Shown here: in pieces, positions 48,254 through 61,326 of the stretch
Numbering within the stretch: position 1 is the first letter of the stretch
How the letters are laid out: every line of letters starts with the position of its first letter
DNA from: Schmidtea nova
Taxonomy: Eukaryota
Length of the DNA stretch: 63,571 bases
Direction of reading: 5' to 3'
Assembly (NCBI GenBank): GCA_044892505.1
Contig: CM097882.1
Location: forward strand, 13,516,430-13,580,000
Made by a program: the position numbers and the translations under genes
Notes under the pieces: model-generated
What the model was told of the DNA's origin: nothing
Databases searched by the model: none
The model's input: the letters and a program-made list of their open reading frames with translations, nothing else

Positions 48254-48427
48254 ATACTTTAAACTTTATTAATTAAAATATACTATGATAAATTAAATTA
48301 TGATAATTTATTAATTTTTATAGCTATTAAATTTGATGTTCTTGAAACATGCCAGTCGTTGTAGTGGATGACCGTGATCCTAACGGGAAGCCTCTGCGAA
48401 GTTTGAATTATTTATTTACAACACATG

Positions 48428-49333
48428 TGTTCGTCTGTGTGTGCTTTTTGATTTTCTATTCGCATCTGTATGCGCTTAATTTCGAAATCTTATTTTGCTC
48501 GCGTCTGTGTGCGCGATTTTGTCTGGGTAATTTTTTAGATTGTTGTTGATTGAGTTATTTATTGATTTTTTGCTTTAGAGGAATTTATTGTTAGATTGGT
48601 TGTTTTATTATTGCAGTTTTTTGAGGGAATTTAGATTTTTTGATTCAAGAATTGAAATTAATTTAAATACAACTATGAATGAAAGCGAAAACGAAGTAGA
48701 AAACGATGAAGTTAATAATACTGATTTATCTGACGACGATTTAACAGAAAATGATGAAAAAGAAGATGATGATATGAATACAGATGATAATGAAAATAAT
48801 CCAGCAAAAGAAGACACAATGCTTTCTGAAAACAAAGATAACAATTCTATAGAAGCTGATGTGGAAATCTCAGAAATTAACTCCCATATCAGATGTCGCT
48901 TTCGCAATGATTCAAATGAACTCTTCAGATGTCGCTTTCGCAATGATTCAAATGAACTCTTCAGATGTCGCTTTCGCAATGATTCAAATGAACTCTTCAG
49001 ATGTCGCTTTCGCAATGATTCAAATGAACTCTTCAGATGTCGCTTTCGCAATGATTCAAATGAACTCTTCAGATGTCGCTTTCGCAATGATTCAAATGAA
49101 CTCTTCAGATGTCGCTTTCGCAATGATTCAAATGAACTCTTCAGACTGAACCTTCTTACACTGATTAATAATAAAATCCTTGGAATCGTGTTACTTTTTA
49201 TCAAAAACATTAATTTGATTATAGCTCGAACATTTGGGCCTTTTGGTCAAATTGTCTGTGATTTTGGATCAAATCATGTAGTTATGAAAACAAATAAAGA
49301 TTCTCACTCGGACGTTCAATCAATGATTTTTCA
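48428..49333 (+). repeat. 5' LTR (906 bp; seven 36-bp repeats at 48890-49141)
   Basis: Matches 53699-54568 except for one extra repeat unit. Confidence 0.95.
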
Positions 49334-52300
49334 TGGTAGCAGAGCGTGGTTCCCACCGGGGGGCCACGCACACTCTGGAAAGCCGTTAGTCGACCTTTTT
49401 ATTAAACATTCTTTTATGCCTTTTGTAAAAATATTAAAATGGGTTAAATTTGTAATTGGAGTATGGACCAACATTCCCTCCCAGGCGCGTTTTGAATGGA
49501 AAGTGAAAGTTGGAATGGCTTGGCCACCGGATATTGTGAAAGACGGCTGCTATGGGCCCCAGCATTCTTTTAAATTCCGGGAAATGTTGCAACAAGATAA
49601 AATTTTGAAAGGCTTAGAACCTTTTGTAGGAATAAGGGGAGATAAAAGTAATCATAAAAAGTTCTATAATCAAATTGTTAAAAATATTAAATTGGGTAAT
49701 CATGAAGACCGGGTAAATATGAATAGAATAGGGAAATTATTGAGTTTTTATTCAATAGCAAGTGGTGATGAAAGGACAAGTCTAAAGGATAATAGTTCGC
49801 GAGTGAAAGAAAAGGAAACGGAGTCCACTTTACATTTTGTTTTGCGATTGAGACGTAGAATACAGATTTTTGTTAAGACTCTAGCAGGTAAAACCATAAC
49901 ATTGGAAGTTGAACCGAGGGACTCTATTGAGAAAATAAAAGCCAGGATCCAAGAGAAAGAGGGAATCCCGCCTGATCAACAGAGATTGATATTTGCAGGT
50001 AAACAATTAGGAGGCGAAAGAATCCTGTCAGATTACCACATTCAAAAGGGGTCTACTATTCATCTGGCACTGAGATTGTGTGGAGGGAATGATGAAGAGG
50101 AGGAATTAGAGGAAGGATTGAGAAAGAAGAGGAGTGTCAAATATAGATTGACGAAATTAAGAAACAGGTGGATGAATGATATGTTGGCAGAAGATGCAAC
50201 ACATGTCCTTGATGAATATCAGGAAGCTATGGAAAGTGCCATAGAGAGTTTTGAAAGATTGGTGGATATTAGTAAAAGATTAGGAAGGTCAGATACAACA
50301 ACGGGGCTAGAATCGGACTTACAAGAGATAGAAAATAAGAACGAGAAGGTGGAAGAGTTAATTTCGTCAAAGGCCAATCAGTCAGTTAGGTCGGATGACA
50401 GCAATACAATTAAAGAGATCAATGGAAATGAAACGAAGAAAAGACTAGAAAAGATGCAGAAGATACGGATCCAGATATTTGATGGACACCAAAAAGAATA
50501 TGAAAGTTGGAAAGCCGCTTTCCATACGTGTGTTGATAGTGCCCATGGAGATGATGATGAAAAGATGTTACACCTTCGATCCTATCTGAAAGGTGAACCG
50601 CTAAGGCTGATCGAAAATTTAGGATTTTCTGCAACGGGTTATAAAATGGCAAAAGAAAAGCTTGATAAAAGATATGGCGGGGAAGAACGAAATTACTTAG
50701 CTGCTCTGGAAGATATCGACAGGTTCCGACCCGTGCGTGAAAATGAAATGCTGGAAATCGAGGCGTTTGTTGGGCTATTGGAAACGCTAGAAGTTAGAAT
50801 TATTAATAATAGACGAGAGGGCGAAATGAACAATAGTTACTTATTGAAGAGATGCCTGCAAAAGCTACCCTGCTCGCTGCTATACAAGTGGAAGAAAGAC
50901 TTTAAGGAGAGAAAGGTAACCGAATGTATCCAAGATTTGAGAAATTGGTTACAAGATGAAGTCGAGCTGTTAAGATCAACAAGAGAAACCCTTTATGGAG
51001 TCGGGGATGGCAATAGAAGAAACGATTGGAAGAGACAGGATGGACCGTCAAGAGAACTTGGGAATCCAAGGCAAGGGAACCGGACACTTGTTGGGCAAGT
51101 AGCAGATTGGAAGGAAGACAAGACAAACATACCAAGAGACGGATTGTTGAGTACAAAGTTGAAGTGTTGGAAATGCAAGGAAAATCATTACTTGGATCAA
51201 TGCAGAGAATTCAAAGAAATGAACCCCGCAATGCGACGTAAAGCAGTAGGAGACTGGAAGTTATGCTTTAATTGTTTAAAGTCTAATCATGTAGCGTCGG
51301 AATGTCGAAAGGCTTCATTCTGTACTAGAGAAGGGTGTAAGCTGAAACACAGTAACCTACTGCATGTGGATCAGTCAGAGTCCAAAAGGAAGGAAAACAC
51401 ATTGATGTCGGCTACTAAAGATGAATTATTAAAAAGGGAGCGAAAATACCTAAGCTTGAGGACGATACCGATCTACCTTGAGCATGGAGCGAAGAAAATT
51501 AAAGTAAATGCGCTGTTAGACGATGCAAGCTCCATTAGCTACATAAGTCAGAGCATTGCAGACGAGTTGGGTCTGAAGGGGAAAGAGGAAATAGTTCCTG
51601 TGAGCGTCATCGGAGGTCATATTCAAAATATGACAACAAGAATAGTCACGATGACGTTGATAAGTTATGATCAGAAGATGAGGAAAAAGTTTACAGCTGC
51701 AGCGGTGAAGAGTGTAACCGGGGAAATGCGAGTGATAAATTGGGCAAAGGAAAAATGGAAATGGGAACATCTAAAGGATATACGGTTTCCAATGCTTGAT
51801 GAACGGCAAGTGGTGCAAGTTCTTATCGGAGCCGATTATTTAGGGTTGCAAAGAGCGTTGAAGGAAGTGGATGGGAAGATGAATGAACCGATTGCGAGAT
51901 TAACGCCGTTAGGCTGGACCTGTGTTGGTAATACGTCGATAAGAAAGCTGGGGAGTCACCAGAGTAATTTTACGCGAACGTTTTTTGGCCAGAGAGACGG
52001 ATTGGAAGACCAAATGCAAAGGTTTTGGAAAATTGATGAAATCGGGCTAAAGGAATATATCGAGAGTTTTGCACTTAAAGCTCAGGAAGAAGTTTTTAGT
52101 GAAAATCAAACTGGTGATAGCGATTTTAATTCAAATCAAAATGAAGATAACACGAAAAAGTATAATATGGCTGGTGAAATGATTGACAACTCTGAGTCGG
52201 TTGATATTGCAAGCGAGGAAGGAATAAATACTTCGTCAAACGAATTAGTGCGAAATGTAATGACGGAAATTGAATCGACAATGGTAGTAAAAGATGAGCG

Positions 52301-53573
52301 GGCAGTAAATGAATATAATTTTGAAGAAAACTGCATTGTCGATGAGAAAATTGTGGAAAATATAAATGATATCGAAGAAACTTGTAAAATTGAGGAAATT
52401 ATTGGAGATAACTCTTTTAATGGGGAAAATATTGAGCATGGAACAGTTGAAAATTCCAAAGTTGATAAAAGTGACGATGAAAAGGTTAATGATATTGAAA
52501 CAAATCTAGAAGATGATGGCAAAATTACCAAATATGTCAGTAATAAAGGTGAAAAAGTAGAAACGATTGAACGAATAAATTGTCCGGTTATAATTGCAGA
52601 GAGAACAGGTAGTGAACAGTCAGCATTTCTTCTAATGAAAAGTAAAGATGCAATTAGTGGCAATAAAATGGGATCATTTGACATGGTTGTGAAAGGTTCA
52701 ACTGGTGATGATGAAGTTCTGGCTGATAAGTCGGATTTAGTAATACAACTTCATTCAAAGATAGAAGATCTTGAAAATAAAATAAAAACGGGCGAATTGG
52801 AATATAAAAGGGAAATTAATGAATCAAAAGTAAAATTTGCGAATTTAGCTAAAACTGTAGAAACGTTATCAGCTAAGATAGAAAAGGTAAATGATATTAA
52901 TGGAAAATTGGCAACTGTAAATCGGGAACTAAAAATAAAGATTAAACGAAATGAAATCGATTTAAATGAGCTATCTGCGAAAGGAAGGCATTTAAATGTG
53001 GAGATGAAAGAAAAGGAAAATGATTACCTAGAAAAACTTCGAGAGGCTAATGACGAAATCGCTTCTCAGCAAACCTTGGTGAAGGATTTGACGGAAGTAA
53101 ATGGTAATTTAATAATTAAACTAAATGGCAATCTGGGAATGATGGAAGATAATAAATTAAACTCGAAGTCTTTAAAGATAGAAGAAGATTTCTTGAAAAT
53201 GGGACTTAGTACTAAAAAGGAGTTGGTTAAAGAAGTCTCAAGGAAATTGGGAAAGAATTTTGAAGAAGAAATTTATATTTCGAACAATATAATGAATATT
53301 GATGAAAAATTAGTCGAACCCAAAAGAGATGGCGAATTAATTGAGAGTCAGTTGATTAAATTAGAAGTTAATGGAAAGGAAAATAGAACGAAATGGTGTC
53401 TGCTGCATGGTCCGGTTGTGGGGCGTGATGGGGAAATTACAAAGGTTCGGATATTGTGCTATACAGCTGCAAAATTCATAAATAAATGCATCATGCAAGA
53501 GGCATGGATGCAAAGAATTGATTGGAAGGAAATACTTCCTCAGGAGGTGATGAAAAAGGAAAACCAATGTTGA
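48675..53573 (+). CDS. 1632-aa fusion: acidic region, 12-aa repeats, UBA1-like fragment, linker, ubiquitin, Gag (DUF1759-like, CCHC), aspartic protease, acidic/coiled-coil, pol scraps
   Basis: First ATG at 48675 in ORF 48588-53573; [35 protein letters not shown]...[34 protein letters not shown]. Confidence 0.9.
49203..49329 (+). other. Ubiquitin-activating enzyme E1 (UBA1)-like fragment inside the LTR (second copy 54438-54564)
   Basis: [31 protein letters not shown] resembles UBA1 [20 protein letters not shown]. Confidence 0.7.
49334..49351 (+). promoter_or_regulatory. Primer binding site, tRNA-iMet type
   Basis: TGGTAGCAGAGCGTGGTT directly after the LTR-terminal CA. Confidence 0.9.
49860..50087 (+). 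other. Ubiquitin domain (76 aa, ends LRLCGG), preceded by a partial ubiquitin tail ending LRLRRR
   Basis: [19 protein letters not shown]...LALRLCGG; 59/76 identical to canonical ubiquitin by hand count. Confidence 0.97.
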
Positions 53574-53685
53574 TGTTATCAGACAACGGTACTAATTTCG
53601 TGGGAGCAACGGGGGAAGTGAGAGATGTGAGAATCGACGGTTATAAGATAACGAAGGAGTTAACGAGGAGAGTTGACGAGGAGTC

Positions 53686-53698
53686 AAAAGGGGGGGAA
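53686..53698 (+). promoter_or_regulatory. Polypurine tract
   Basis: aaaagggggggaa directly before the 3' LTR TG. Confidence 0.9.
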
Positions 53699-54568
53699 TG
53701 TTCGTCTGTGTGTGCTTTTTGATTTTCTATTCGCATCTGTATGCGCTTAATTTCGAAATCTTATTTTGCTCGCGTCTGTGTGCGCGATTTTGTCTGGGTA
53801 ATTTTTTAGATTGTTGTTGATTGAGTTATTTATTGATTTTTTGCTTTAGAGGAATTTATTGTTAGATTGGTTGTTTTATTATTGCAGTTTTTTGAGGGAA
53901 TTTAGATTTTTTGATTCAAGAATTGAAATTAATTTAAATACAACTATGAATGAAAGCGAAAACGAAGTAGAAAACGATGAAGTTAATAATACTGATTTAT
54001 CTGACGACGATTTAACAGAAAATGATGAAAAAGAAGATGATGATATGAATACAGATGATAATGAAAATAATCCAGCAAAAGAAGACACAATGCTTTCTGA
54101 AAACAAAGATAACAATTCTATAGAAGCTGATGTGGAAATCTCAGAAATTAACTCCCATATCAGATGTCGCTTTCGCAATGATTCAAATGAACTCTTCAGA
54201 TGTCGCTTTCGCAATGATTCAAATGAACTCTTCAGATGTCGCTTTCGCAATGATTCAAATGAACTCTTCAGATGTCGCTTTCGCAATGATTCAAATGAAC
54301 TCTTCAGATGTCGCTTTCGCAATGATTCAAATGAACTCTTCAGATGTCGCTTTCGCAATGATTCAAATGAACTCTTCAGACTGAACCTTCTTACACTGAT
54401 TAATAATAAAATCCTTGGAATCGTGTTACTTTTTATCAAAAACATTAATTTGATTATAGCTCGAACATTTGGGCCTTTTGGTCAAATTGTCTGTGATTTT
54501 GGATCAAATCATGTAGTTATGAAAACAAATAAAGATTCTCACTCGGACGTTCAATCAATGATTTTTCA
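53699..54568 (+). repeat. 3' LTR (870 bp; six 36-bp repeats at 54161-54376)
   Basis: Direct repeat of the 5' LTR. Confidence 0.95.
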
Positions 54569-55308
54569 ACATGAATTAAATTCGATCATAGTGTTTTGAC
54601 GCGGTCTTGTCAGCTCATTCACGACGCATGAAAAACAACGCTGTGAGTGACGTATTGATGTCCAGATCCTGTTGAGCCAAATATTAGGGGTGGCAGAAAC
54701 AACTCTTGTGGATGCGATTACTTACCCATCTGGCTTTTAAGGAACAGGCAATACCGCTTTTTACGACTGGCAATATTAAAACATATTGTCTTCATCTTGT
54801 CTTCTCTTATATTTATACAAATTAATAATAAGTTATCATAATTAAAAAAAATTATATTAAAAATAACAATACTTAGAAAAATAGTAATTAACAAAAATAA
54901 TTATGATAAAAATAATTAATAAAAATAAGAAACGTGTGAAAATAAAATAATAATAAATAATAAAAATAAAAATTAGAAACGCTGTAACTTTTATTTAACC
55001 GAAGTTAAAATAAAATAATTTTTATTCACAATTGTTTTTATAAGTTGGCTTAATTTTCAGTCACTGTTTTCTATTTTCTTTTGTTTTGCCAATATTATCC
55101 GCGATATCTTTAGTTATTATTGTAGTGCCTCCGTCATATTCATAATATAAATATTTATATATAAATTAAATAAAATAAAATATTATAAGATTATATATAT
55201 ATATATATATTATCATAATTATCTTTTTTCACCTTTGATCTTTTTTTATTATTATTATCAATAATTCTCATAATGACTATAGATCAAAATTTTTTTTTAT
55301 AAACAATA

Positions 55309-55341
55309 ACACAATATTTCGGCACAGCCTTTATCAAGTGT
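55309..55341 (-). ncRNA. Variant minimal hammerhead motif in pLTR
   Basis: Reverse complement of 61231-61263. Confidence 0.65.
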
Positions 55342-55440
55342 GTATTTCTATCGTTATATTTACTTAATCCTAAATAGTAGCCTTAATTATTTTTTTAATA
55401 TTTTATAATGATTTTATTGGATGAAAAAATTTATTTTATT

Positions 55441-58042
55441 TTAATTTTTTTGTGCGAATTGAATGTTGATGGACAGTTTGTATTTTTTTATGAAAAAAGT
55501 CTCGGAAGCTAATCTTTGTAATGAATTTTTGAATCCCTCTTGTAGGATCTGGCATTTTGTTTCTTCTATAGATGGAGTTGTTTTATGTACTTTTTCCCAG
55601 TGTTCGTAATAATTACTGGTTTTGATTTTAGTATGTTCATTAAGTCGGGTGCGAAAAGTTCTATGTGTTTCTCCTATGTAAGTAGCGTCACATTTTTGAC
55701 AAGAAAGTTTATATACTATATTTTTGGAAAAGCAAAAGCATCGGGTTGTGGAACGACAAAGACATTTATGTTTGGAGATGTTGGAAATTGGTGGCTTTCG
55801 GAGTTGTGATTTTAACGGTGCGGAGGTTATGAACGTTGGACGGATGTGGATAGGCAAATCTGTTTGATTAAAAATGTTGGTGATTTTGTTGGCTGTAGTG
55901 TCATTTAGGAAAGGTAATCTTAGATATGTTGTGTGTTTGTTATTGTTATTGTGTTTCTGGCGTTTTCTATTGTTGCGTTTATTGTGGTATGGTTCGTTAA
56001 GGAAGTGTTTCTTTACAAAGTCTTCAGGGTATCCATTTTGGAGGAATCGTATTTTGAAGTTTTCTAATGTTTCTTGTATTTTGTTTGCGTCTGAACAGTT
56101 TCTTATGGCTCTTTTTCTTTCTCCTATTAGTAATGCGATTTTGCGTTGAAGTGGAACGTGGCTTTTCCATGGGAGGATATGACCGCTATGTAAACCTTTA
56201 GAATATAGCTCGGTGTTTGCATTTAGTGTATCTTGGCCTTTTGTGAAACTTACCATGGTATCTAAAAACGGTATTTTACCTTCTGTGTTCGGTGTTTCAA
56301 AAGTAAATTGTATGTTGGTGTTAGTAGAATTTGCGTGTGATAGGATTTGATTGAGAGGGATTGTGGAGACTATGAAGATGTCGTCGATGTATCGTTTCCA
56401 GAAAAGTATTTTGTCCCCAAAAAAAGATATGATCTTAGATTCTATAAAGTTCATGTAGAAGATGGCTAAGATGGGAGAAAGGTTATTACCCATGGCTAAT
56501 CCATGAATTTGTTTGAATGGTTTTTCTTTAATTATGACAGTATCTGAATTTATTGCTAATTTTAGAAGTTCTATAAAGTCTTGTTTAGTTAAGTCTGCGA
56601 GGTCAGTATTGGCTTTATGAGTTTCAAAGAAAGAAGCTGCGATATCGAAAATGTTATTCTCTCCGTGAAGAGGAATAGATCCGTAAAGATTGGAAACGTC
56701 AAGAGATCCCCAGAAGTACTGTTGTCCTGAGTTTAACGGAAGAGACGTATTTGTAATTTCGGAGACGAATTCAGTTGTGTTTTTAAGATGAGAAGGAACC
56801 AAAGGCAAAAGTGTTTTTAGAATTTCTGAAAGAACTTTAGAAAGTGTTGTGGAAGGAGTGTCAACTGCAGATACAAGAGGTCTACCTTTTAAAGGACTTT
56901 TGTGATCTTTAGGTAACATAGTCATATTACTAGGTAAAGGCTCACTGCAGTTGCATTTTAAAAGTAAATCTTTGATTTGAAGGTTAATTTGTTTATTTGC
57001 AAGTGTTGAAAGTTTCTTATTGTATAAAATCTGAGTCGATGCAGGTAAGATTATTTTGTTTATCGGTTCATAGTTCGAGAGATGTTCTTCAAATAGAGTA
57101 TTGTATTGTTCTGTGTCAAGAGCAATTAGTCGATTTGTTTTATCTGATGGAAGAATTGTGAAGTCTTTGGAATTCTTAATTTTCTTTATGTTTGAAGTGA
57201 AAGAATTTTGTGTTGAGCAATGTTTTTCAAGAAAGATAATTTGTTCTCTGACTAAAGTTTTGACTTTAGTTTCTAAACAGCTGAGTTTTTCTTCAAGTTC
57301 AGTCGAAAAGACAGGCATATTTGGATATGTTCTACGATTTGGATCCAGAAGATGATTGTGCTTTTCAGCTAAACTTGAAGATTTGGTGGATGAAATTGGT
57401 TTTAGATGGTATCCTATTTGTCTTCTTAGGCTTATAAGAGAGGCGTTAGTGATGATTTCGGCTTTTTCTAAATCTTTCTGGTTAGGTGGAGGAACAAAAG
57501 ATGGTCCTAGAGCGAGGATGTTTTCTTGTGTTTTTGAAAAAATGTGATTAGATTTGTTTGTAAATGGAAGAATTGAATTTGAGTGTGAGTTAGTGTCTTT
57601 AGTGTTGTTTGAATTTGTTGAAAGTAGCTTTTCTAATTTTTTTTTTATGCTTGCGAATGTCAAGATTTTTGGAGAAATTCTGGCAACAAGTATTATCTTC
57701 ACAAGTAAGAGGAGCACAAGGAAAACTAGTAAATTCGTTTAGCTTTTTGTAACAAGCTGAAATGCTAAGCTTAAGCCATTCTTTTTCCTGTTTTTCTTTA
57801 AGCTTCAATGCTTGTAAAGATGGATAGGTTGATTCCAGTTTGTTGGTAACAGTCAGGCCCACGGGAATGATGTTTCTTCTTTTGCATTCTTTTAAAAAAT
57901 GTAAGTGTGATTTGATTTTGATGATTTTGAGACTATAAAATAACGATAGATCTACTCGGTGATGGGCGTCCGCCAATATACTATCATAATTATCTTTTTT
58001 CACCTTTGATCTTTTTTTATTATTATTATCAATAATTCTCAT
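55441..58042 (-). pseudogene. Penelope RT/GIY-YIG ORF, frameshifted at the T10 run 57637-57646 (6 nt in copy C)
   Basis: SLDVSNLYGSIP, GLAMGNNLSP, RYIDDIF, IPFLD, VYKLSC...YIGET. Confidence 0.88.
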
Positions 58043-58079
58043 AATGACTATAGATCAAAATTTTTTTTTATAAACAATA

Positions 58080-58112
58080 ACACAATATTTCGGCACAGCC
58101 TTTATCAAGTGT
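58080..58112 (-). ncRNA. Variant minimal hammerhead motif in pLTR
   Basis: Reverse complement of 61231-61263. Confidence 0.65.
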
Positions 58113-58548
58113 GTATTTCTATCGTTATATTTACTTAATCCTAAATAGTAGCCTTAATTATTTTTTTAATATTTTATAATGATTTTATTGGATGAAAAAA
58201 TTTATTTTATTTTAATTTTTTTGTGCGAATTGAATGTTGATGGACGGTTTGTATTTTTTTATGAAAAAAGTCTCGGAAGCTAATCTTTGTAATGAATTTT
58301 TGAATCCCTCTTGTAGGATCTGGCATTTTGTTTCTTCTATAGATGGAGTTGTTTTATGTACTTTTTCCCAGTGTTCGTAATAATTACTGGTTTTGATTTT
58401 AGTATGTTCATTAAGTCGGGTGCGAAAAGTTCTATGTGTTTCTCCTATGTAAGTAGCGTCACATTTTTGACAAGAAAGTTTATATACTATATTTTTGGAA
58501 AAGCAAAAGCATCGGGTTGTGGAACGACAAAGACATTTATGTTTGGAG

Positions 58549-61131
58549 ATGTTGGAAATTGGTGGCTTTCGGAGTAATAATAATAATTATGATAGTATAT
58601 TGGCGGACGCCCATCACCGAGTAGATCTATCGTTATTTTATAGTCTCAAAATCATCAAAATCAAATCACACTTACATTTTTTAAAAGAATGCAAAAGAAG
58701 AAACATCATTCCCGTGGGCCTGACTGTTACCAACAAACTGGAATCAACCTATCCATCTTTACAAGCATTGAAGCTTAAAGAAAAACAGGAAAAAGAATGG
58801 CTTAAGCTTAGCATTTCAGCTTGTTACAAAAAGCTAAACGAATTTACTAGTTTTCCTTGTGCTCCTCTTACTTGTGAAGATAATACTTGTTGCCAGAATT
58901 TCTCCAAAAATCTTGACATTCGCAAGCATAAAAAATTAGAAAAGCTACTTTCAACAAATTCAAACAACACTAAAGACACTAACTCACACTCAAATTCAAT
59001 TCTTCCATTTACAAACAAATCTAATCACATTTTTTCAAAAACACAAGAAAACATCCTCGCTCTAGGACCATCTTTTGTTCCTCCACCTAACCAGAAAGAT
59101 TTAGAAAAAGCCGAAATCATCACTAACGCCTCTCTTATAAGCCTAAGAAGACAAATAGGATACCATCTAAAACCAATTTCATCCACCAAATCTTCAAGTT
59201 TAGCTGAAAAGCACAATCATCTTCTGGATCCAAATCGTAGAACATATCCAAATATGCCTGTCTTTTCGACTGAACTTGAAGAAAAACTCAGCTGTTTAGA
59301 AACTAAAGTCAAAACTTTAGTCAGAGAACAAATTATCTTTCTTGAAAAACATTGCTCAACACAAAATTCTTTCACTTCAAACATAAAGAAAATTAAGAAT
59401 TCCAAAGACTTCACAATTCTTCCATCAGATAAAACAAATCGACTAATTGCTCTTGACACAGAACAATACAATACTCTATTTGAAGAACATCTCTCGAACT
59501 ATGAACCGATAAACAAAATAATCTTACCTGCATCGACTCAGATTTTATACAATAAGAAACTTTCAACACTTGCAAATAAACAAATTAACCTTCAAATCAA
59601 AGATTTACTTTTAAAATGCAACTGCAGTGAGCCTTTACCTAGTAATATGACTATGTTACCTAAAGATCACAAAAGTCCTTTAAAAGGTAGACCTCTTGTA
59701 TCTGCAGTTGACACTCCTTCCACAACACTTTCTAAAGTTCTTTCAGAAATTCTAAAAACACTTTTGCCTTTGGTTCCTTCTCATCTTAAAAACACAACTG
59801 AATTCGTCTCCGAAATTACAAATACGTCTCTTCCGTTAAACTCAGGACAACAGTACTTCTGGGGATCTCTTGACGTTTCCAATCTTTACGGATCTATTCC
59901 TCTTCACGGAGAGAATAACATTTTCGATATCGCAGCTTCTTTCTTTGAAACTCATAAAGCCAATACTGACCTCGCAGACTTAACTAAACAAGACTTTATA
60001 GAACTTCTAAAATTAGCAATAAATTCAGATACTGTCATAATTAAAGAAAAACCATTCAAACAAATTCATGGATTAGCCATGGGTAATAACCTTTCTCCCA
60101 TCTTAGCCATCTTCTACATGAACTTTATAGAATCTAAGATCATATCTTTTTTTGGGGACAAAATACTTTTCTGGAAACGATACATCGACGACATCTTCAT
60201 AGTCTCCACAATCCCTCTCAATCAAATCCTATCACACGCAAATTCTACTAACACCAACATACAATTTACTTTTGAAACACCGAACACAGAAGGTAAAATA
60301 CCGTTTTTAGATACCATGGTAAGTTTCACAAAAGGCCAAGATACACTAAATGCAAACACCGAGCTATATTCTAAAGGTTTACATAGCGGTCATATCCTCC
60401 CATGGAAAAGCCACGTTCCACTTCAACGCAAAATCGCATTACTAATAGGAGAAAGAAAAAGAGCCATAAGAAACTGTTCAGACGCAAACAAAATACAAGA
60501 AACATTAGAAAACTTCAAAATACGATTCCTCCAAAATGGATACCCTGAAGACTTTGTAAAGAAACACTTCCTTAACGAACCATACCACAATAAACGCAAC
60601 AATAGAAAACGCCAGAAACACAATAACAATAACAAACACACAACATATCTAAGATTACCTTTCCTAAATGACACTACAGCCAACAAAATCACCAACATTT
60701 TTAATCAAACAGATTTGCCTATCCACATCCGTCCAACGTTCATAACCTCCGCACCGTTAAAATCACAACTCCGAAAGCCACCAATTTCCAACATCTCCAA
60801 ACATAAATGTCTTTGTCGTTCCACAACCCGATGCTTTTGCTTTTCCAAAAATATAGTATATAAACTTTCTTGTCAAAAATGTGACGCTACTTACATAGGA
60901 GAAACACATAGAACTTTTCGCACCCGACTTAATGAACATACTAAAATCAAAACCAGTAATTATTACGAACACTGGGAAAAAGTACATAAAACAACTCCAT
61001 CTATAGAAGAAACAAAATGCCAGATCCTACAAGAGGGATTCAAAAATTCATTACAAAGATTAGCTTCCGAGACTTTTTTCATAAAAAAATACAAACCGTC
61101 CATCAACATTCAATTCGCACAAAAAAATTAA
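58549..61131 (+). CDS. Penelope RT/GIY-YIG endonuclease (860 aa from junction-derived ATG)
   Basis: Uninterrupted frame with all RT and GIY-YIG motifs. Confidence 0.88.
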   Translation: MLEIGGFRSNNNNYDSILADAHHRVDLSLFYSLKIIKIKSHLHFLKECKRRNIIPVGLTVTNKLESTYPSLQALKLKEKQEKEWLKLSISACYKKLNEFTSFPCAPLTCEDNTCCQNFSKNLDIRKHKKLEKLLSTNSNNTKDTNSHSNSILPFTNKSNHIFSKTQENILALGPSFVPPPNQKDLEKAEIITNASLISLRRQIGYHLKPISSTKSSSLAEKHNHLLDPNRRTYPNMPVFSTELEEKLSCLETKVKTLVREQIIFLEKHCSTQNSFTSNIKKIKNSKDFTILPSDKTNRLIALDTEQYNTLFEEHLSNYEPINKIILPASTQILYNKKLSTLANKQINLQIKDLLLKCNCSEPLPSNMTMLPKDHKSPLKGRPLVSAVDTPSTTLSKVLSEILKTLLPLVPSHLKNTTEFVSEITNTSLPLNSGQQYFWGSLDVSNLYGSIPLHGENNIFDIAASFFETHKANTDLADLTKQDFIELLKLAINSDTVIIKEKPFKQIHGLAMGNNLSPILAIFYMNFIESKIISFFGDKILFWKRYIDDIFIVSTIPLNQILSHANSTNTNIQFTFETPNTEGKIPFLDTMVSFTKGQDTLNANTELYSKGLHSGHILPWKSHVPLQRKIALLIGERKRAIRNCSDANKIQETLENFKIRFLQNGYPEDFVKKHFLNEPYHNKRNNRKRQKHNNNNKHTTYLRLPFLNDTTANKITNIFNQTDLPIHIRPTFITSAPLKSQLRKPPISNISKHKCLCRSTTRCFCFSKNIVYKLSCQKCDATYIGETHRTFRTRLNEHTKIKTSNYYEHWEKVHKTTPSIEETKCQILQEGFKNSLQRLASETFFIKKYKPSINIQFAQKN

Positions 61132-61321
61132 AATAAAATAAATTTTTTCATCCAATAAAATCATTATAAAATATTAAAAAAATAATTAAGGCTACTATTT
61201 AGGATTAAGTAAATATAACGATAGAAATACACACTTGATAAAGGCTGTGCCGAAATATTGTGTTATTGTTTATAAAAAAAAATTTTGATCTATAGTCATT
61301 ATGAGAATTATTGATAATAAT

Positions 61322-61326
<5 letters not shown>
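58576..61326 (+). mobile_element. Penelope-like element copy C, inverted relative to A, ORF open to 61131
   Basis: Near-identical to copy A; 5' pLTR truncated at the inversion junction; 3' pLTR runs into (TA)n. Confidence 0.93.
61231..61263 (+). ncRNA. Variant minimal hammerhead motif in Penelope pLTR
   Basis: ACAC TTGATAA A GGC-TGT-GCC GAAA TAT T GTGT; TTGATAA replaces CTGANGA. Confidence 0.65.

Follow-up and report, generated by a model that had tools for sequence, protein, structure and literature searches.

Pieces of apparent host mRNA in the coding LTRs of a BEL/Pao retrotransposon family, with a ubiquitin unit ahead of Gag

Accounts of LTR elements that take up host genes mostly portray such capture as a rare, internal event that comes at a cost to the element. 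Coding sequence in an LTR has precedents: GAG of Ty1 starts in the LTR, and env of Cer13 lies in an LTR. The surveyed BEL/Pao elements (Belpaoviridae; PMC3118150) have a single gag-pol ORF with DUF1759, protease, RT, Peptidase_A17, integrase and DUF5641, as well as TG...CA LTRs and 5-bp target-site duplications, and the family described here resembles them in all these properties. It differs from them in that its ORF begins in the LTR and that a 300-500-aa leader of host pieces ends in ubiquitin. The words 'ubiquitin' and 'additional domain' do not appear in the main text of that survey, its supplements aside.

LTR-mediated retroposition, as described by Tan et al. (2016; PMC5131818), joins intron-free pieces of host mRNA at short microhomologies, and the pieces reported here have the same properties. 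The published set includes a mosquito BEL case and multi-gene chimeras; in Drosophila, retrocopies took the place of part of the internal ORFs, and such loci behave as non-autonomous elements. In the present family, by contrast, pieces that keep the reading frame occupy the LTR and leader at hundreds of places, enzyme-complete copies included. Maize Bs1 is also similar, in that the titles cited for it speak of serial capture from three host genes and a fused chimeric ORF (PMC13317346, PMC5131818). Bs1, however, is one fixed internal chimera for which these two articles, in the text available, report no ubiquitin junction, whereas here there is a swappable LTR cassette.

Cytopathic pestiviruses (BVDV Osloss, CP1 and CP Rit) likewise carry a ubiquitin captured from the cell and preceded by residual host coding sequence. 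According to these accounts, the ubiquitin is a processing signal that is cut by host ubiquitin C-terminal hydrolases and sets the N-terminus of the next protein (PMC8310069, PMC13517609). The pestiviruses are RNA viruses in which this is found in sporadic variants, with cleavage established by experiment; in contrast, the arrangement here is fixed in a retrotransposon lineage and cleavage is deduced. Drosophila telomeric retrotransposons with pieces of piwi, aub and nxf2 show repeated capture in an active family, a silencing gene included, as does the present family with an FKBP6-like gene (PMC13534243). Those elements are non-LTR, with pieces of 140-235 bp and eight of nine described events in the piRNA pathway, whereas the pieces here extend to ∼1 kb, keep the frame and come from genes of diverse function. 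The planarian Burro elements are LTR elements with host-like domains in the polyprotein, but they belong to the gypsy group and have folded accessory domains in a giant ORF, as opposed to young mRNA fragments in the LTR (PMC6431247). The separate ingredients have precedents, and what may be new is their combination. This was not found in the literature searched, including the accessible text of PMC3118150, PMC11410931 and PMC6431247; subscription journals, Repbase and supplements may hold it.

The window analysed here is a stretch of 63,571 nt from Schmidtea nova (contig CM097882.1, positions 13,516,430 to 13,580,000 of the forward strand). An LTR element spans positions 48428-54568 of the window, with all its parts on the + strand. 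Comparison of the flanks reveals the 5-bp target-site duplication ACATG, with the left copy at 48423-48427 and the right copy at 54569-54573. The 5′ LTR is 906 nt in length (48428-49333, TG...CA) and the 3′ LTR is 870 nt (53699-54568); the two show no mismatches, and their sole difference is one 36-nt unit. The primer-binding site (PBS, 49334-49351), which we take to be initiator tRNA-Met-like, is read through in frame, and a polypurine tract is present at 53681-53698. The ORF extends from 48675 to 53573 (1632 aa), and its ATG sits 247 nt into the 5′ LTR. A Pfam scan of the ORF detects HSP90 at aa 302-381 (E=2.6e-12), ubiquitin at aa 398-468, DUF1759 and protease, and does not detect RT or integrase. 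The window copy is non-autonomous.

Related copies are abundant in the host genome (G000), which is 1.25 Gb and AT-rich. A first look with the LTR end gave 788 candidates and one with the HSP90 piece gave 840, which are not copy numbers. Many copies have open frames of 2,180-2,330 codons, and two of these (L018 and L073) encode DUF1759, protease, RVT_1, Peptidase_A17, integrase and DUF5641 behind the same leader. The TG...CA LTRs, PBS, polypurine tract and short target-site duplication, together with a single gag-pol ORF, the order protease-RT-RNase H-integrase and the Pao-specific Pfam families, are those by which an element is classed as a BEL/Pao LTR retrotransposon. Both ends were found in 16 copies out of 36 loci tried. 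In these, the LTRs vary from 717 to 2,061 nt in length and 5-bp target-site duplications are present in 16/16. The LTR pairs differ by 0-2 mismatches, and the family therefore inserted recently.

The 5′ LTR of the window is a four-part chimera, consisting of a WDR63 5′ end, 36-nt repeats, the end of another LTR type and a UBA1 remnant. These follow a non-coding part (48428-48658) that is strongly variable among copies and is presumed to hold the promoter/U3. This part, like the matching parts of L170-L189, is pieced together from short GCGTCTGTGTGCGC-type modules and tracts rich in T, and it differs even among copies with an identical coding cassette. The segment at 48659-48890 corresponds to the 5′ end of the host WDR63/DNAI3 mRNA, with one substitution in ∼230 nt relative to the host gene (L190). 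It begins 16 nt upstream of the host start codon, which is the ATG at 48675, and continues for ∼72 codons that include an acidic stretch; a 48-nt GT-AG intron of the host gene is absent from the LTR copy. When the acidic stretch itself was used for searching, only element copies were retrieved. A longer capture of the stretch matched a 1,023-aa protein at 82%, and this protein is WDR63/DNAI3 (E=2e-190). Next is the 36-nt repeat (48889-49145, 7.1 copies), which is frame-neutral and is present once only in other LTR types. It is followed at 49146-49211 by the end segment of a different LTR type, as in L073 and L170, with its own AATAAA at 49170. This old end is joined to the UBA1 remnant (49203-49284, ∼27 codons) at an 8-nt microhomology. 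The LTR terminates in a common end (49274-49333) with the poly(A) signal AATAAA at 49293-49298, and this end is the joining point for many different cassettes.

Downstream of the PBS there is an in-frame leader without a named source that varies between subfamilies (49352-49576), an HSP90 fragment with a 27-nt in-frame deletion (49577-49823; dN/dS 0.98 vs the host gene), and a polyubiquitin capture (49821-50087). The latter consists of the tail of one unit, which here has lost its Gly-Gly, and one full unit (49860-50087), whose terminal Gly-Gly immediately adjoins Gag. Gag (DUF1759, zinc knuckles) and protease of the BEL/Pao type occupy 50088-51936. The remainder of the ORF (51937-53573) is mostly acidic/coiled-coil instead of RT, RNase H and integrase. 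The long in-frame acidic/coiled-coil stretch at 51937-53390, which replaces the region from RT to integrase, is a property of the non-autonomous subfamily, in which several copies share it. It has no convincing Pfam match and is possibly another capture.

A preliminary description of this locus had noted an ORF running from within the 5′ LTR through the acidic stretch, the 36-nt repeats, a UBA1-like peptide, the LTR end and the PBS into ubiquitin-Gag, as well as a copy in the 3′ LTR that reads into the flank. Both are present, the latter at 53946-54599. The HSP90 fragment at aa 302-381 and the WDR63/DNAI3 source of the acidic stretch had been missed. The likeness to UBA1 has been borne out. 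The peptide matches human UBA1 (phmmer E=0.0027), and the sequence at 49203-49293 is ∼91% identical to the host UBA1 gene L013, located via the E1_FCCH family (84/92 nt, E=1e-32). There is a second, near-identical UBA1 gene copy with a frameshift (L014, G000:C1:277.91 Mb), and the captured piece is nearer to L013. Three sister copies (L082, L083 and L085) hold a 511-nt UBA1 capture that is 98% identical to the host, and the window piece equals the last 82-91 nt of this capture type, its 3′ tail. In the sister copies 12 nt of UBA1 exon 1 directly abut exon 2 with the intron removed, which agrees with the transcript origin that had been suggested; these 12 nt also resemble the 36-nt repeat unit of the element.

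The further proposal that the LTR was built from UBA1 does not hold, given that the start codon and acidic stretch are the 5′ end of WDR63/DNAI3 and that many LTRs of the family have no UBA1. The UBA1 piece in the window is a remnant left by later recombination, and would be one passenger that has been three-quarters overwritten.

The joint presence of E1 and ubiquitin had also been taken as a sign of selection. This would mean that both pieces were selected as functional parts that interfere with the host ubiquitin pathway. UBA1, NAE1, ubiquitin and PSMG1 do all come from ubiquitin-like or proteasome pathways, and there is some purifying selection on ubiquitin. The UBA1 pieces, however, have 27 codons in the window and at most 167 in sister copies, which is part of one adenylation half-domain; a complete adenylation domain under purifying selection was not found among them. 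The window remnant shows 4 replacement and 0 silent changes over 26 codons, and dN/dS of the longer capture is 0.5-1.8, based on very few changes. In addition, when the Gag frame is read upstream across loci, UBA1 is absent from most LTR types, and other LTRs carry DCC1, FKBP6-like, TCP1, PSMG1 or NAE1 sequences in its stead. Interference with the ubiquitin pathway, already weakened by these data, is highly improbable. What stands of the preliminary interpretation is the coding LTR, the host UBA1 and its transcript origin; a UBA1-built LTR and selection on E1 function do not.

The contents of other cassettes were surveyed by reading the Gag frame upstream in 99 loci and 20 more, with pieces named by family or structure-database match. 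LTR ends are similar, yet the contents in front of them differ. Matches among the LTR pieces are to UBA1 (ThiF, 1e-19 to 3e-21), DCC1 (1e-58), FKBP plus TPR (2e-10), TCP1 (1e-36 to 1e-40), PSMG1/PAC1 (6e-7) and NAE1 (6e-12), with weak matches to ANGEL2 (E=0.048) and an ABC-transporter (3e-4). On the 3′ side of the primer site there is either HSP90 or glutathione reductase (E=2e-12) plus HSP70, and then ubiquitin. Database matches gave no name for the pieces of L055/L074, L105/L112 and L117, and the search with the L049 piece gave no usable match. Targeted searches for NOP9 as the source of the L112 piece and for a HEAT protein as the source of the L097 piece gave no match. The FKBP cassette is present in at least 134 places of the host genome. 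Its best match is to FKBP6/Shutdown clusters (Atlas scores 0.94-0.97), and P0001, a close relative of the donor (86% identical), is also nearest to these clusters.

Five pieces could be traced to their host source genes in G000, and introns are missing from four of these (WDR63, DCC1, FKBP and UBA1). The host gene of the fifth, HSP90, is intron-free over the captured stretch. The DCC1 piece consists of two exons (99% and 97%) with an exact exon-exon junction, the ∼6.5 kb intron being absent, and the FKBP piece is continuous in the LTR where the host gene has several introns and many exons. The missing introns indicate that the donors were mRNAs. The WDR63 and FKBP captures contain the host start codon and some upstream bases. 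Microhomology was observed by eye at five joints in all, among them WDR63/repeat, old end/UBA1, UBA1/LTR end and HSP90/ubiquitin. Pieces are as large as ∼1 kb. They occupy both LTRs and the leader, also in copies with all enzyme domains, and do not replace internal ORFs. The captured set leans to chaperone and ubiquitin genes, for which abundance alone may be an insufficient reason. Three older elements (L044-L046) have longer HSP90 pieces (Pfam positions 94-283) adjoining ubiquitin-like sequence, which suggests that the HSP90 capture was trimmed over time.

The family is probably best described as a young BEL/Pao lineage whose LTR and leader consist of interchangeable, intron-free pieces of host mRNA in the Gag frame. 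These pieces would be captured by template switching, translated as an N-terminal extension and cut off by a deubiquitinase at the ubiquitin Gly-Gly. Evidence on the reading frame comes from 134 PBS sites, which are related copies found by HSP90, FKBP, WDR63 and UBA1 queries and not independent events. At least 100 open codons lie upstream in the PBS frame at 111 of the 134 sites; the counts for the other two sense frames are 0 and 1. Ubiquitin is in the PBS frame at 107/124 sites, and the frame is open from the LTR to ubiquitin at 85/124. When 150 of the 180 stop-free segments in the other five frames were scanned, no host family match was obtained except one repeat artefact.

Amino acid sequences of the pieces show little constraint. 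For variants common to at least three copies, counted without a tree among copies that recombine, dN/dS is 0.99 for HSP90, 0.86 for FKBP and 1.1-1.9 for three unnamed pieces, compared with 0.42 for ubiquitin and 0.17-0.27 for Gag and protease; PSMG1 (too few rows), TCP1 (too few columns) and WDR63 (too few shared variants) were left out. For private variants, dN/dS is close to 1 in the leader as well as in the first two blocks of Gag, and 0.3-0.6 beyond them. Pooled ratios of silent to replacement changes are 29:100 in the leader vs 119:74 in gag-pol (p=4e-12), and the ubiquitin ratio of 23:25 also differs from that of the leader (p=0.0015). Eight HSP90 copies compared with the host have dN/dS of 0.73-1.26 at 10-20% divergence. 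Shared indels in the leader are multiples of three in 6/6, 5/5, 6/6 and 2/2 cases with four references and in 6/10 with two others, the four remaining indels forming pairs with a sum of 51 nt; one event may count under several references. In the non-coding LTR part 6/16 shared indels are multiples of three, and private indels mostly are not. One shared 1-nt indel within a cassette counts against a kept frame. Shared stop codons in the leader are weakly depleted (2 observed vs ∼6 expected, Poisson P ∼0.06). The captured pieces evolve neutrally in amino acids while the frame is kept.

It might be argued that the LTR frame is untranslated, and that Gag is made from an internal start or from a spliced or trans-spliced RNA. 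In-frame pieces would then result from codon-biased microhomologies and from youth. Codon bias may indeed partly favour in-frame microhomologies, the window captures are very young (one change in ∼230 nt of WDR63), leaving little time for stops, and T-rich tracts that end in AG are present in the 5′ part of the LTR. Yet older pieces that are 10-20% diverged are still open, shared indels and the repeats are multiples of three, and Gag has no Met after ubiquitin in 125/134 units. An untranslated frame is therefore improbable.

The ubiquitin-Gag junction is highly conserved. In 127 of 134 units a Gly-Gly, whose codons vary silently, adjoins Gag, so that a ubiquitin with this C-terminus is fused in frame to the protein that would be released from it. 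As an internal control, the ubiquitin tail further upstream retains its Gly-Gly in 52/134, and this difference points to selection at the junction. At least four different Gag starts are found behind ubiquitin, which is itself preceded by HSP90 or HSP70 pieces; the units in which Gag lacks a Met directly after ubiquitin include the window lineage. Selection is visible on the open frame and the ubiquitin-Gag junction, and selection for the ubiquitin pathway is not supported. Residue 74 of ubiquitin is Cys in 101/134 units, which could impair cleavage. When compared among element copies only, the element ubiquitin retains its core, but its surface has changed throughout the lineage, with positions 70 and 74 among those affected. 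Speculatively, such a ubiquitin may be cleavable and yet poorly conjugated. Searches for ubiquitin-Gag fusions in other species returned mainly polyubiquitins.

In the window LTR the poly(A) signal is ∼40 nt before the LTR end, and AATAAA or ATTAAA is present 25-60 nt ahead of 122/134 PBS sites vs 117/1340 control windows. From this position, R likely extends almost to the LTR end. A transcription start in the variable 5′ LTR part would give a long R and a short U5, with translation starting inside R. Contigs from four sequencing runs cover the unique flank evenly and look like DNA, so that they have no bearing on the start site or the level. A cassette within R would be copied first by the reverse transcriptase and duplicated into both LTRs. 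Should the enzyme, while copying U5 and R, jump to a co-packaged host mRNA and back, the cassette would be swapped. Given a likely start of translation in R, no Gag-Pol would be made from a copy whose piece interrupts the frame, and only sense, in-frame pieces would spread. Host deubiquitinases, by cutting at ubiquitin, would provide a constant Gag N-terminus whatever lies upstream; upstream content could therefore drift and be replaced when a further piece is captured. The leader of captured pieces would be an expendable N-terminal extension. We infer the transcription start, translation and cleavage steps from sequence evolution.

A broader and more tentative proposal is that the LTR is a standing trap for host mRNAs. 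Ubiquitin would uncouple Gag from what is captured, and each LTR type would take samples of the host transcriptome. A promoter, a start codon and a poly(A) signal would travel with the pieces to tens or hundreds of sites, and some pieces, such as FKBP6/Shutdown and HSP90, would be amplified by blunting piRNA silencing.

A related but separate explanation is that pieces are kept through small RNAs that knock down silencing genes (FKBP6/Shutdown, HSP90, HSP70), or that the element hides behind host sequence that cannot be silenced; either could operate on top of capture and ubiquitin cleavage. FKBP6 and HSP90 serve piRNA production. The FKBP cassette, closest to FKBP6/Shutdown clusters, is the one found in at least 134 places, and the main lineage has the HSP90 piece. 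Among 11 well-named pieces, however, only the FKBP6-like and HSP90 pieces have a piRNA role of which we are aware; the dynein chain, DCC1, glutathione reductase and TCP1 have no known link to silencing. Furthermore, the open frame and sense orientation are kept, neither of which is needed for small-RNA targeting. The Drosophila telomeric elements with piwi, aub and nxf2 pieces do make piRNAs against these genes, but almost no host-mapping piRNAs are reported there at ∼80% identity (PMC13534243), and the HSP90 piece here is 10-20% diverged. Retention of the pieces for such an effect is unlikely.

In this family gene capture is serial, takes place within the LTR and does not preclude copies that are complete and recently inserted. 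If cleavage occurs as proposed, one event, the placement of ubiquitin before Gag, would explain nearly free capture, in parallel to the pestiviruses. The family offers many dated natural template switches with known donors, with which co-packaging and the jump sites of the reverse transcriptase are directly testable. Each 3′ LTR, as well as each solo LTR, provides the start of a chimeric gene, ready for use and open into the flank. Hundreds of near-identical pieces of host genes will confound annotation, read mapping and RNAi design in the host genome.

Several other observations concern genomic location. Among copies in the ranges L017-L035 and L140-L144, ATTAT or ATAAT accounts for 8/16 target-site duplications, and (ATT)n/(TAA)n microsatellite makes up several of the flanks; insertion targeted to such repeats is possible. 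Regularly spaced tandem arrays of family members are found in G000 at C1:453.33-453.36 Mb, C2:433.69-433.72 Mb and C1:323.39-323.40 Mb. Outside the element, the window has two inverted 2.4-kb copies of an RT-bearing ORF at 55246-61326, which are 100% complementary and presumably Penelope-like. The ORF at 58549-61131 encodes 860 aa and has a GIY-YIG-like motif at the C-terminal end.
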